Shown piece by piece: positions 2,004 to 62,218 of a stretch of 64,000 nt of DNA (position 1 is the first letter of the stretch; every line of letters starts with the position of its first letter). Source of the stretch: Octopus vulgaris (lineage: Eukaryota); NCBI GenBank assembly GCA_951406725.2, contig OX597819.1, forward strand, positions 79,732,001 through 79,796,000, read 5' to 3'. A program made the position numbers and the translations under genes. Under the pieces are notes generated by a model. That model made no database searches. It had not been told where the DNA came from and worked only from the letters and a program-made list of their open reading frames with translations.

Positions 2004-4090
2004 GTGACTGAGAGAGCAGTGCATGCCATCAAAGTGACGCTGGGGTAAAATATGCGAAGCCCAGTATACCCATCATGACTACCCGTCTGACAAGGGTACA
2101 CTAGGCACATGCATCACAACCATATGTGCGCGACATGGTGATCTCATATCAAGATAAAAAGCGCATGATCTTACAGGTGGGGCGCAGTTAGAATTTTCTT
2201 CTGGTCGAGTAGCCCATCCCGCTCAAAAGGTCCCTGAATAAGGATTGTTTAAGGATGTTGAACGAAACACCCATGTTTCCGAAGGTAAATTATCCAAACC
2301 TCAAAGAATTCCTTTCAACCCACGGATATGATGCTCCCCCACTACTTCTGCTCATGATCAGAGAAGCACATATCGTCAGCCACTAAGGGACATGGTCAAC
2401 TGGCTAAGGTCAAACAACTGACAAGCAAATCTGTGGTATTGAGCAGAATATTTGCTGTAGCCCATCTTTTATACCAAGACATAACAATGTACATGATAAC
2501 ACTTCCAATCAGTTAAGATCAGAAGCCATTGAGAGCCACTGACTGGTACTGCATCAGGGCATTTATTATTATTATTATTATTACTTTTTTTTTCTTCTTT
2601 CAAATTTGCTTCCATTTCTTGCCGAGTGTCTTCCTGACTCCTAGGGCAAAGAAACTCATAGTATACATTGGTAGGCCATTAAACCAAACTCAGTAGTTCG
2701 TTCATTTTTTTTTTTTTTTAAGTTAAATTAAAATACATGAGCAGCAACAGTTCTCACATCAACAATGCTCTTCTCAATACGTGTGATGTACCAGTTAAGA
2801 CAATCTTTTGCACTTCTTGCAGGGATGGTAAGCCAGGGATCATTCTCATATAATTTTCGGTTCCCTTCTTGATCATTCCTAGTGCTCCTACGATCACTGG
2901 TATTGTAACCGCCTTGAGATGCCACATTTTCTCAATTTCAATGAGTAGGTCTTTATATTTTCTGAGCTTGTCAAACTCTTTCGCTGAGATATTATGATCA
3001 CAGGGGATGCTCATGTCGATTAATAAGCAAACTTTATTGTTTTAGTCTTTCACAACAATATCTGGTTTATTGGCCTTGATGGTTCGGTCTGTATGTACTG
3101 GAAAGTCCCACAGAATGGTTACATTTTCTCCTTCAGTTACAGCCTCAGGGTGTATACCACTTGTCGGCAGTTTTGATATTGCAATGCCGACTTATTAGCC
3201 AGTGTAGATATTGGCCAACTCTGTCATGTCTTAATTTATACTCCACTGGTGCTAAGACTTTACATCCAGAGAATAGGTGGTCCACTGTTTCAATCATGTC
3301 GTTGCAGAATCGGCATTTTGGGTCTGCTCCATTTTTCATCACATTGGCCTGGTAGTTCCGGGTTAATAGGCTTTGATCTTGAGCAGCCAGGATGAAACCT
3401 TCGCTCTCTGCTTTTAGCCCTGAGCTCCGTAGCCACTGATGGATTTGCTTCTGGTCAACATCAGCTTGTTTGCTGCGGGACACATATTTGCCGTGCAGAG
3501 GTTTCTCCTCCCAACTATCAGCCAATTGCTCGTGCGCTTTTTTCATTGCCATCATTTTCACCTTCTTTGCAACAATAGTTGCCGTACTTCCCTCGGGTTG
3601 TTCAGTTTGGGTATCCTGCACGAGATCAATAGCAAATTTTTTGCTTTCCTTTATGATAGAATGAAGCTTCTTTCGTCTCTCGTGATTTTCCACGAGCTTT
3701 AGCATCCAGTCATTCGATATTTCGAGATATTTGGCCAGTCCAATTGTGGTTGTTTTGTAAGCTAGTTCAAATTGGATCAGGCCTCGACCTCCTTGGGCTC
3801 TGGGAAGGTAAAGGCGATCTACGTCTGCCTTTGGGTGGTGCATCCTATTACAACTCAGCAGCTTGCGTATTTTTCTATCTATATTCTTTACTTCACTCAT
3901 ATTCCAGTTCAACACATTGTAGCTATAAGTAACAACTGGAACTGCTAATGAATTTATAGCTAACACCTTGTTACGTGCATTTAGTTCAGATTTCAGGACT
4001 GCACGAACTCTCCTATAACATTCCTTCCTGATTTTCTCTTTCATGCTTGCATGCTGAATACCAGAGCCTTCATTTATCCCTAAATATATA

Positions 4091-4093
<3 letters not shown>
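2003..4093 (-). mobile_element. 5'-truncated R4/Dong-clade non-LTR retrotransposon inserted in (TAA)n
   Basis: Minus-strand RT thumb (YLG...RLYLPRAQGGRGL), CCHC knuckle (CRFC..DHLFSGC), RHD motif and restriction-like endonuclease (ILWDF..KPDIVV..LIDMSIP..KEFDKLRKY); flanked by (ATT)n at 1955-2002 and 4094-4180, the known Dong target; an internal (ATT)n at 2563-2583 splits the 3' region. Confidence 0.88.
2754..4093 (-). pseudogene. R4/Dong ORF remnant (RT C-terminus + CCHC + RLE endonuclease)
   Basis: ORF-track pieces 3145..4242 and 2754..3014 join through one frameshift near 3150 and one nonsense codon near 3043; the poly-N N-terminus of the track ORF is flanking (TAA)n. Confidence 0.88.
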
Positions 4094-4181
<88 letters not shown>

Positions 4182-4189
4182 CGTTACGT

Positions 4190-4410
4190 AAGCCTTGAGC
4201 TAGCAGAAACGTTAGCCAGCCGAACAAAACGTTTAACGGCATTTCGTCCGTCTTTACTTTCTGAGTTCAAATGCCGCCATGGTCGACTTTACCTTTAATC
4301 TCTTCGGGGTCGATAAAACAAGTACTAGTTGTGGATTTGGGTCGATGTAATCGACTATCTCCCTCCCCCAACTTCCAGGCCTTGTGCCTATAGTAGAAAC
4401 GATTATTGTT
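4190..4410 (+). mobile_element. SINE-like family B (core TTCTGAGTTCAAAT..GGTCGACTTT.CCTTT..TC.TTCGGGGTCGATAAAA)
   Basis: Same sequence recurs at 4503-4602(+), ~45880-46040(+), 48670-49345(-), 55515-55975(+); B-box-like GAGTTCAAAT; ends in (ATT)n. Confidence 0.75.
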
Positions 4411-37216: not shown

Positions 37217-37790
37217 CAAGGTGTCCCAAAAGTCATTGAGAGATTTCCACTTTTTAATAACTTCCTTAAGTTACAAATGAATGCATGAAATTTTGATTCA
37301 GTATAAGGAATATAATGGCAATTAATATGTACAAGTAAAATTTTGCAACACCACTGCATCACATATAAAAAAATGGCAGCGCTGAAATGGCAGCAATTTT
37401 CAGTTTCACACGCCCGTACTCTTTCGAAAACTTTGCACCATAACACCCTGAAGAGTTTCGACCCCCACTTCTCTGATTTCAGTATTGATGTTCTCCTTCA
37501 GTTGCACCAGGGTCTCCGGTTTGCTGACGTAAACCCTATCTTTCAGGTATCCATGAGTGAGACATTCAGGGCCCCGCTAATCAAAGTAGACCTCACACAT
37601 GATTCCAGCAAGATGGGGAAACTCCTCATACTGCAAGAGAAAAAAAATGCAGTTGCTACAGCAGTGTTTTGAAGAGAGGATAATCTTCCGTTGCGGCAAT
37701 GTCAATTGGCGTTCCCGTTCCCCAGACTTGACAAGCCCGGATTTTTTTCTTGTGGAGAATTGCAAATGATGGTCATATTTGATAAACAGG
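37217..37790 (+). mobile_element. Rearranged Tc1/mariner fragment
   Basis: Left end TA|CAAGGTGTCCCAAAAGTC; LRGNVNW(R)SRSPDLTSPDFF motif at ~37690-37750. Confidence 0.65.
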
Positions 37791-37976
37791 CGATAGCAAA
37801 GATGGATATGCGCATCATGTGTATACATGGAACTGAACCCGAAACTATGTGGTTGCAAAGTGAACTACTTACCGCACAGCCACGCCTTACTTTGGAGTAG
37901 ATTCTTCTGTTTCCCTCAACCATTTGATATTGTGTGTGCAGAAGCGAGCTGCTATCATATCTAGCAGATGAAGTGT

Positions 37977-38027
37977 TCAGTACTGAGGAGCGGCAGACAT
38001 AACCCGAAACCAGGACTGGTCTACTGA
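37977..38027 (+). ncRNA. Type I hammerhead ribozyme with canonical core and GUC cleavage triplet
   Basis: Helix I TCAGTA/TACTGA, CTGAGGA 37983-37989, weak helix II G(C)GG/CCC, GAAA 38006-38009, helix III ACCAG/CTGGT, GTC 38019-38021. Confidence 0.8.
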
Positions 38028-38190
38028 TCCCGTTGACGGGATATGGTAGGGGTCCGCTCCCCTGATACCAATTTTATCGGAAGCAGCTATACATCGTTAA
38101 CCAACTAAGGTGATGCCTTCTTGGGGTTAAAAATGGCAGTAGATTCCGCTCAACGGACAGCCATGCTAACGCGGCTACAAGTATTACTTG

Positions 38191-38273
<83 letters not shown>

Positions 38274-38280
<7 letters not shown>

Positions 38281-38720
38281 CAAAAAAGAAAAAAAAACTA
38301 CAGAAGGCTTGTGTTATATGGTTAAAGAATATATATATAATTCGTCATGTTAGAAAAATGTTATTAGATTTTGCGTATAGTAACATTGTTTTTGGAGAAA
38401 TAACCGGTTTCGTATTTTCTTTTCAAATTTCTCAAATTTCTTCACCGATAACGTGTCATGTCTTTCCTATTTTATGAAATATTGAGTTCCTGACAGGCTA
38501 TGGTAATCAAGGAATTTTCCGGTGTAAGGGAGATAATCAAAAATGTTTGGAATGACTAGGTTTTATTAATTTAACATGATTTGGTTAAGAAGGAATAAAA
38601 TCCAGTCCTTCCCAACATTTTTGATTATCTCCCTTATACCGGAAAACTCCTGATTAAATATATTCTTTAACCATATAACACAAACATTCTGTATTTTAAA
38701 AATTCTTTTTTGTCTTTTAT
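38274..38720. repeat. Nested inverted repeats
   Basis: Outer arms ~38274-38335 / 38657-38720; inner arms ~38505-38570 / 38594-38657. Confidence 0.8.
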
Positions 38721-49345: not shown

Positions 49346-51024
49346 AACAGGAAAACAATAAATTCCGACCAGTCTGTGTAATTTCAAAAGGTCAGAATTA
49401 CCCACTAAAACCACAGCAATAAAGAATTCCTTTCCTGGAAACTACATATTAAATAAACACAGCTGTTGCACTTGTGCTTATTGTTGCATAGATTTAAATC
49501 ACGTCTGATGAAATTAAGCTATGACTAAAGACATTCCAGACCTGCCAATCCAGCCTTTTCTGTTTCAGTCATAGTGTGTCTAGGATTACATTCTCTTATG
49601 CACTTTAATCTTTATTAGTGCGTATGGTGTCATTTGAGGAATATTTGGCCGTTATTTCCTGCTGGTGGGACGAATTAGTGGATGCTTACATGCGAATTCT
49701 GTACAGTAAAGCAAATATGGTCTTAAGGTAACACATATCGCTACTTTAACGTGGGTGTTCTCTAACAGATGATAATACTGTCGGTTTAACCCCAGGAACA
49801 CATGTCCTGGTTTATCCAGTGCACTTTCGCACTCGAGACCACGAAACTACGTTAGTCTAACCTTGCTTGCAATATATAGAATATACAGTGTCATACAATC
49901 ACTGATTTTGTAACTAGGAAATATGTCCGTTTGAAAATTTCTGTTCGAGATAGAAGCAATATGCGAACCAAAAAGGTAGTGTATGTCGCCACTTTATAGT
50001 ACTTTTGGCATTTGCAATTTTCATTTTTTAATCCTTGAGAGAAAAGATGAAAAAGTTATCACGTGGTTTGAACTTGGAAACAATACTGAAATTAACTGTT
50101 GTAGACTAATTATCTCGTATATACCCCCAATTTTATTGTTGTTGGTGTTTACGATGATGATGAGGAGGAGGTTGATCTTATTGACGATGACGACGACAAC
50201 GACGACGATGACGATGATGGTGATGATGATGATGCAATGATGACGATGACGACAACGACGACGACGACGATGATGGTGATGATGATGATGCAATGATGAC
50301 GATGACGACAACGGCGATGTCGCCGATGATGACGATGACAATGACGACGATGACGATTTTCTTCATGATGATGGTGATGATGATGATCATCATCATCATC
50401 CTCATGATCATACTGACCATGATCGTGTTGGCAACAATGACGATGATGACCACGACGACGATGATGACCACGACGACGATGACGATGATGATGATGGTGA
50501 TGATAATGACTACGACAAGATGACGATAATGATGATTAAGTTGATGGCTAATAACGTCGACGACGACGGCAACGATGATGATTGTGATGGTGATAATTGT
50601 GTTTTATGATGATGATGATGATGATGATGACGATGGTAGGGGTGATAGCTGTAATAGTCTTTAACGCTACCGACTACCCCCACCAACAAAACACCACCAC
50701 TTGGGCAACTTTTGCGACATCAGTTTCTTTTATAGTGCAATTAATCATATATTAAGGGTGCAAAGTTTTTGACAGAGGATGGAGAAGGGGAGAAAAAGAA
50801 AGAGAAAGAAAGAAAAAGAAAACGAGAAAGATAGATGATGAGGATGATGATGTCGATGATGATGATGTTCATGATGACGATGATGTTGATGGTGAGGATG
50901 AAAGTGGTGGTGTAGACAACAGAAGAGAGAGAACGTAGTGTATGTAGGTGGAGGAGATTTATGAGACAGAAACGTATGGTAGGTGAAGGCTGAGAGAGAC
51001 AAAAAATGTGTAAGAATAAAATTT

Positions 51025-61322: not shown

Positions 61323-62218
61323 CCCCCTTCAAAGTCCAACCGTTCTCATCACCGTGGTGCTGGGGGTGACAACGGCGTATGGTAAGTATGCAGGCTAAAC
61401 GGCTCTGGCCTGGGGAAAGACCTGGTCACCCCCCCCCCCCAGTATCTTGACCAATATACTCTATGGATCAAAAGTGTAAGAATTCTAATATGATGGTACC
61501 AAGCGGTGGGACTCCCGGGCTGCGAGGTACCACATTGGCTACTGGGGAAGAGCGCAAGGATAATCATAATAGCGGCGGTATTGATGATGTGGATGGGACA
61601 AAACCTTCTGGACACCTGCCTGTTGATGTAGCCACCAGCGAACTGAGATACCTGTGCTGCACAAAAGTCATGAAAATTGGAACATGGAACGTAAGGGGAA
61701 TGAACATTGAGAAGTTGGACACCATCAGGAAGGGAAATGAATCGGTTAAACATCGATATCCTAGGAGTCAGCGAAGTTCATTGGACTGGCAATGGCTTCT
61801 TCAACTCTGGTGATCATACGATGTACTTTTCGGGCAATAGTAAGACCAGACAACATGGAGTGGGATTTGTTCTATACAAGAAAATATCCAAGTGTGTTGA
61901 AAGTTTCCAGACCATCAGTGATCGAGTGATTACCATTCGCATCAAAGCCAAACCCAACAACATCACATTCCTACAAATCTACGCACCAATTTTGGTCATA
62001 TTATGCGGTGAAAATCCCTGGAGAAGGACATCATGCTCGGAATGGTCAGTGGCAAGAGAGGAAGAGGCCGACCAAGAACTTGCTGTCTTGACACCATCAA
62101 TGGTTACACGGGAATGACCATGGCCAATCTGAAAGAAGCGACTCACGATAGAACTGGCTGGAGAACACTGATCCATCGAGTAACCGAGACGACTTCGACT
62201 GATCGGATAGATAGATAG
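61323..62218 (+). mobile_element. Internally deleted RTE-clade LINE with 11-bp TSD
   Basis: APE endonuclease N-terminus (KIGTWNVRGM..DILGVSEVHWTG..HGVGF..QIYAP) joined at ~61990 to the RTE C-terminus (FGHIMR..GKRGRGRPR..DRTGWR); (GATA)n tail; ATCATGACTTC at 61312-61322 and 62219-62229. Confidence 0.9.

Follow-up and report, generated by a model that had tools for sequence, protein, structure and literature searches.

The question raised by this locus is what kind of element carries the hammerhead ribozyme motif and chain of hairpins found at 37977-38193 of a 64,000-nt stretch of Octopus vulgaris DNA (contig OX597819.1), the whole of which is referred to here as the window. The original prediction offered two answers, an integrated monomer of a structured retrozyme or viroid-like RNA, or the ribozyme-defined 5' UTR of a LINE. 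The reading reached here, to which we assign a probability of roughly 85%, is that this stretch represents one copy, decayed and 5'-truncated, of a dispersed non-coding 361-nt retrozyme, likely inserted in AT/CA microsatellites by the reverse transcriptase (RT) and GIY-YIG endonuclease of a Neptune-type Penelope-like element (PLE).

The canonical ribozyme core was confirmed by a descriptor scan, with CTGAGGA at 37983-37989, GAAA at 38006-38009 and GTC at 38019-38021, as was the 6-bp stem I, in which 37977-82 pairs with 38022-27. This type I hammerhead (37977-38027) is the sole descriptor match on either strand of the window and so is present there as one ribozyme in one polarity only. A 5-bp helix III had also been proposed; the pairing segment is present, but in the monomer it would form 4 bp plus a loop because 5 bp would leave a loop of 2 nt. 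The segment is a near-palindrome, and its predicted energy is -16.9 kcal/mol as an intermolecular duplex versus -2.0 kcal/mol as a hairpin. Palindromic helices III suited to dimers have been described in metazoan hammerheads (PMC4209133). Stem II is weak in the window copy (1 bp by strict count, with a private change at 38002), and Rfam gave no hammerhead match at the gathering score in the window, nor at E<=5 in 37800-38200.

Comparison with other copies in the genome, which are referred to as family A, showed that the 5' boundary first placed at 37977 is wrong, as homology reaches 50 nt further upstream, to 37927. The window copy is 265 nt long and 86% identical to the family A consensus, and spans unit position 267, through the cleavage site, to position 173, making it a sub-monomer of the 361-nt unit. 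Its parts are as follows, B and C being two sister families described below.

37927-38191, + strand: whole element, a 5'-truncated family A copy with 231/268 identity to the consensus.
37927-37982, + strand: 5' strand of the rod, ending in the 5' strand of stem I; homologous in other copies, paired with 38022-38073 in the consensus fold and absent from the original prediction.
37977-38027, + strand: type I hammerhead motif from the descriptor scan; core intact, stem II weakened, cleavage predicted after 38021.
38009-38020, + strand: near-palindromic stem III, with predicted pairing between two ribozymes (a dimer); palindromic also in families B and C.
38022-38073, + strand: 3' strand of the rod, holding the first two hairpins originally described, which are partly private to the window copy.
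38080-38095, + strand: hairpin H1 of the family fold; decayed, with no fold in the window copy, and covarying across families.
38097-38130, + strand: two-tier hairpin H2, the best conserved helix across A, B and C, with compensatory pairs.
38145-38176, + strand: hairpins H3 and H4 of the multibranch domain, whose closing strand lies beyond the 3' end of the window copy.
38180-38191, + strand: 3' end of the copy, falling in the first of the two fixed end sites of the family (unit 164-178), a 15-nt span in which 37/83 family segments end; putative start of reverse transcription.
38195-38275, no strand assigned: insertion-site microsatellite of (AC)n followed by (AT)n, the same context as at most family 3' ends.

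The absence of an ORF held up, with none of at least 120 aa on the + strand over the element, as did a GC content above the surroundings (0.49, versus 0.44 in the 500 nt upstream and 0.36 in the window; 12/294 tiles are equally GC-rich). Several other repeats were seen in the window. Upstream of the element, 37581-37755 and 37827-37887 are fragments of two very abundant repeats, which we take to be a Tc1/mariner-like remnant and a tRNA-type SINE. Directly after the microsatellite, 38273-38720 is a MITE-like fold-back element; its terminal inverted arms are long, and it contains a 58-nt inverted repeat. A weak match to the body of family A (69% over 105 nt, E 4e-4) at 49892-49996 on the - strand is possibly a much older relative. 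LINE-like fragments lie at 3145-4266 (- strand; weak zf-RVT match) and 61451-62117 (+ strand; no Pfam match), the latter presumably an endonuclease-like start, judging by its motif.

The possibility that the sequence is single-copy was removed by searches of the 2.8-Gb genome with two parts of the unit, which returned 683 and 714 first-look candidates. The best non-self matches were 85% and 88% identical (among the best 40 of 683 and the best 40 of 714, respectively), the best 40 from the first query having 77-85% identity over most of the query. There are 40 exact matches to a 20-mer from the hammerhead (control 0), 10 of which fall among the 40 best loci of the first search. This suggests that family A comprises a few hundred copies. 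An exact search of the genome for a 50-nt pattern gave no match, as expected because the copies are about 11% diverged. At other loci the same sequence recurs on the upstream and the downstream side of the ribozyme, and a period of 361 nt is seen in the pile-up consensus. The unit is thus circularly permuted and also occurs as partial tandems, 12 of 83 segments being longer than one unit. No long tandem arrays were seen among these 83 segments from 52 distinct loci, the longest of which is 621 nt. The criterion of Li et al. for an 'active' retrozyme is tandem units with at least two complete hammerheads. Two tandem loci of family A (L021 and L045) have two hammerhead regions each, three of the four decayed, and the window copy does not have two hammerheads.

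Family A is old. Segments of at least 150 nt differ from the consensus by 11% on average and by a minimum of 5.7%, and no young copy was present among the best 40 of the 714 candidates obtained when the other half of the unit served as query. The core of the hammerhead is intact in 17/46 alignments spanning it. Substitutions affect 8.3% of paired sites (851/10290) and 8.1% of unpaired sites (500/6167; p 0.72), and 20% of CpG sites. Selection on structure after insertion was therefore rejected and, because paired and unpaired sites mutate equally, the copies are considered to be fossils that decayed regardless of pairing once inserted. The window locus is most likely such a fossil. Its membership of a structure-preserving subfamily was also considered and rejected, as 2 of its pairs are compensatory, 16 are singly broken and 2 doubly broken, placing it mid-to-low among 37 copies; no closer relative of it was found among the best 40 of the 683 candidates. 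A contig of sequencing run X17 (organism D) matches window positions 37762-38028 with 5 differences in 267 nt and, since this contig spans the 5' junction of the element, the insertion is also present in organism D. Among the sequencing runs listed with contigs matching families A or B, none is on record as RNA. Contigs of runs presumed to be RNA match family B in pieces and, in two runs, family A through a single listed contig per run, which represents another copy; they show no readable junction or start site and so speak neither for nor against expression. Family B is present in runs under five organism labels.

The six consecutive stem-loops of the original prediction do each fold alone, but only 38097-38130, 38145-38157 and 38159-38176 are helices of the family. 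Private mutations of the window copy underlie the other three, namely 38028-38041, 38177-38191 and, within 38044-38070, the outer stem. In the consensus fold 38022-38073 is instead the 3' strand of a long rod, paired with 37930-37982. The folding energy of the 217 nt first delimited is unconvincing (z -1.73; 11/200 shuffles as good), and the true extent folds at z -1.32 (20/200 shuffles as good). The circle of the family A consensus has a predicted energy of -135.7 kcal/mol, with 0/100 and 0/60 shuffles as good (z -6.1 and -7.1), and is made up of a branched body plus a rod, about 50 bp long, with the hammerhead as its cap. The retrozyme reading is therefore supported at the level of the family by the 361-nt unit, the type I hammerhead, the terminal redundancy and the folded consensus circle, but the locus itself is not a ribozyme-led monomer. 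It is a sub-monomer spanning the cleavage site, and its chain of hairpins is partly mutational noise.

Further evidence for this fold came from the sister families B and C, which were found beside PLE loci. Family B is young and has a unit of 360 nt and 2888 candidates, its best copies are 95-97% alike, and it occurs in tandem up to 2.6 units, with segments of up to 944 nt. It has a U3-A8 variant of the hammerhead core and a 6-nt palindromic stem III (an example lies at L104:2939-3490). Family C has a unit of 357 nt, 3022 candidates, copies about 5-7% from the consensus (for example L098:5076-5320, and L128) and a C.A mismatch at the base of stem II. A hammerhead-like motif in an AT-rich repeat (L096:2470-2541, - strand) has a stem III palindrome identical to that of family C. 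The three families are colinear and mutually 51-54% identical, the circles of B and C fold at z -6.7 and -8.5, and in the predicted folds of all three the rod holds together the ends that cleavage leaves on the monomer. Of the 116 pairs of A, 97 lie within two columns of a pair in the own fold of C, and 63 in that of B. RNAalifold on the three together found 23 pairs changed on both sides yet kept in every one of them, compared with a mean of 10.5 and a maximum of 16 in 40 column shuffles, a result based on three independent sequences and below an R-scape-grade test. Projected double changes are clear for C (22, versus 6-12 when slid) and modest for B (16, versus 6-12), and in 13 real copies a compensatory change was seen in 14/30 predicted pairs.

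The manner in which the copies end provides the link to PLEs. In family A, 62/83 segments end at their 3' side in two windows, unit positions 164-178 and 214-238 (40 of 361 nt), these windows having been drawn after the data were seen and the first 30 A loci and the main arms of B and C having been chosen by queries ending at such sites. When loci were picked only by the hammerhead 20-mer, 26/37 3' ends fell in the two windows. The 5' ends are scattered, with 9/83 in the same windows, and within 10 nt of the cleavage site there are no 3' ends and two 5' ends. The 3' ends usually adjoin (TA)n or (CA)n, and those of B and C lie at places homologous to the two end sites of A. Tail-out inverted arms were seen at 23/52 A, 11/25 B and 6/25 C loci. 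Where both arms end at fixed sites, different sites are used in 19/21 loci (A 9/10, B 6/7, C 4/4), a test biased by the choice of queries. Laps and arms of one locus have private non-CpG variants in common at 3-4 times the rate seen between loci (0.19 and 0.17 versus 0.05 in A), which could arise from gene conversion or local duplication; tandem laps of family C had 0 private variants in common in 4 pairs. It has been reported that tandem and inverted insertions with a microsatellite bias are marks of PLEs (PMC8557442), and that two internal RT start sites produce the PLE tail (PMC11167929). All of these PLE-type features, namely partial tandems, an inverted 5'-truncated arm, two 3' registers and a microsatellite target, are present here.

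A candidate partner is abundant in this genome. There are 6136 GIY-YIG candidates, many, among the best 150 scored, in open frames of 781 aa. The frames match RT and GIY-YIG in Pfam, the RT scores lying just below the Pfam cut-off, and carry a cysteine motif in the linker. A linker cysteine motif is described as marking Neptune and Nematis (PMC8557442), and the partner clade is accordingly named here as putatively Neptune-type, on this motif rather than on a tree. A Neptune-type family ends at (TA)n in two registers, 4/18 copies having an extra tail of about 36 nt. Abundant young families of this type, with intact ORFs, (TA)n ends and an optional tail with a small hairpin, were seen at L091-L093 and L254, where a descriptor scan of the 3' regions found no convincing hammerhead. 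Two direct fusions were found. At L013:1446-3233 (the same as L181:2033-4440) a left arm of family A ends at the second site in (AT)n, and in the right arm a piece of A, 82 nt long, passes with an overlap of 2 nt into a PLE that extends as far as its own (TA)n terminus. This PLE is 86-88% identical to a relative with an intact ORF, and there is no further PLE match to the left. The reverse arrangement is found at L128:888-1737 (L128/L182), where a piece of PLE is joined within 3 nt to 1.2 laps of family C. Direct fusions thus occur in 2/195 retrozyme locus records (one in A) and any PLE protein match in 9/195, some records being duplicates. We read both fusions as probable template switches during a single insertion event, although a later deletion could mimic a fusion. 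An earlier nucleotide scan for abutments of PLEs and retrozymes was discarded, as two of its queries held common short repeats, and was replaced by a later one. Because of the insertion ends, and because one copy is fused directly to a PLE, it is likely that PLE-type enzymes spread family A, which on these grounds belongs to the known class of animal retrozymes.

A scheme of the following kind would account for these observations. Tandem transcripts of the circularly permuted unit are predicted to self-cleave via hammerheads acting as dimers through the palindromic stem III. The monomer, its ends held by the long rod, would then be ligated into a circle, a step we give about an even chance. 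The PLE protein would nick (TA)n and prime cDNA at either of two fixed internal sites of the RNA, which lie about 55 nt from each other; in many cases each DNA end would use its own site, and tail-out inverted arms would result. The footprint of the copies shows that synthesis crosses the cleavage site, sometimes proceeds beyond one unit, stops variably and is able to pass on to PLE RNA.

A circle and an uncleaved tandem transcript are about equally probable as the template. The same element and PLE machinery could have used an uncleaved linear tandem or read-through transcript, with no circle and with a hammerhead dispensable for insertion, and this is a serious contender that we place somewhat short of even odds. 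Hammerhead cleavage was reported to be unneeded in vitro by an Anolis PLE, for which unprocessed RNA was the main substrate (PMC11167929), copies spanning the cleavage site fit uncleaved RNA as well as they fit a circle, and family B has recently spread with a U3-A8 core variant. A circle is favoured, however, by the rod joining the two ends of the cleaved monomer in every family, by the private variants common to laps within a locus and by the description of analogous mussel repeats of 350-390 nt that accumulate as circles (PMC7229834).

Derivation of the unit from an autonomous PLE elsewhere in the genome, as its solitary pseudo-LTR, is unlikely. PLE pseudo-LTRs are described as bearing type I hammerheads with palindromic helix III (PMC4209133), 24/57 Xenopus retrozyme families are reported to match known elements, nearly all PLEs (bioRxiv 10.64898/2026.07.22.740005), and the survey here scored the best 150 of the 6136 GIY-YIG candidates. 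Against this, what lies upstream of the unit is the previous unit and never an ORF, in segments of up to 621 nt in A and 944 nt in B. Retrozyme sequence was not found as a pseudo-LTR in 43 GIY-YIG locus records, whose two matches are insertions in their own right, nor in the fused PLE family (29 copies), and these records and copies are a small part of the PLEs of the genome. The unit is likewise not an autonomous PLE, having no ORF with RT plus GIY-YIG. An origin by reverse transcription of a viroid-like RNA, whether exogenous or replicating autonomously, is still less probable. The size, the rod-and-branch fold and the heterogeneous source variants do resemble small ribozyme circles, but there is one ribozyme in one polarity in the window, and three related families of different ages, with thousands of candidates and several organism labels, fit genomic elements. 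A SINE identity does not fit the circular permutation; ARAGORN, which misses decayed heads, found no tRNA-like head in 8 loci. The 5' UTR of a LINE, to which the ribozyme near the 5' part of the window copy and the LINE-like RT fragments within the window might have pointed, can be dismissed because no downstream ORF or common body exists: copies break off at set positions, some 170 or 225 nt past the cleavage site, and run into microsatellites (in which the long downstream frames lie), downstream flanks are unshared except in duplicate records and three locus pairs, and 3' ends are fixed while 5' ends vary, with the same 361-nt unit upstream of the ribozyme.

The window locus itself is an ordinary fossil repeat, and the family matters a little more. 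The copying of animal retrozymes by PLE enzymes and through RNA circles has so far been proposed more than shown, and the most useful addition made here is the fusion of a retrozyme to a PLE. The double fixed start sites, the fold kept across three families at about 52% identity and the seamless fusion with a specific PLE family suggest a named enzyme and a named RNA signal that can be tested jointly. It is conceivable, in a conjecture that we think rather more apt to fail than to hold, that ribozyme RNA circles have persisted over a long time as one lineage comprising A, B and C, and that their covarying hairpin domain is a structural signal by which a Neptune-type PLE protein is brought to the two fixed start sites, one for each DNA end, the fusions being direct template-switch products that name the partner enzyme. 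If this is true, rolling reverse transcription of an animal RNA circle could be reconstituted in vitro. A literature search found no description of a cephalopod retrozyme, and the main text of a repeat annotation of Octopus vulgaris (PMC13282606) contains neither 'ribozyme' nor 'retrozyme', although its supplements or repeat libraries may list these families under other names.

Non-LTR retrozymes have been described in animals (Cervera and de la Pena, 2020; PMC7229834) and linked to PLEs (Li, Clavereau and Pollet, 2026; bioRxiv 10.64898/2026.07.22.740005). As characterised in those accounts, they share with family A a type I hammerhead, a unit within 150-450 nt (350-390 nt in mussel), the lack of an ORF, a highly self-paired predicted circle (for the consensus, not the window copy), coexistence with PLEs and dispersed monomer derivatives. 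Family A differs in that it is old and that its dispersed copies are mostly sub-monomeric, no long arrays having been seen; its GC content is 47% where theirs is below 45%, and it is known here from sequence alone. That literature proposes mobilisation by PLEs from common features, co-occurrence and pseudo-LTR homology, whereas the proposal made here derives from insertion ends and a fusion. With EN+ PLEs of the Neptune/Nematis type, as described by Craig et al. (2021; PMC8557442) and Frangieh et al. (2024; PMC11167929), family A has in common 5' truncation, partial tandems, inverted 5' arms, two 3' registers (the tail) and microsatellite or AT-rich targets. Unlike them it has no RT or endonuclease, its tail is about 45-60 nt versus 30-40 nt, and it has no sequence match to the PLE ends examined in this genome. 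The minimal hammerheads of PLEs set out by Cervera and de la Pena (2014; PMC4209133) resemble that of family A in the palindromic helix III and an unpaired base close to where stem II begins, and that of sister family B in the U3-A8 core variant; in family A, unlike in those ribozymes, helix III is longer and a rod of about 50 bp carries the hammerhead at its tip.
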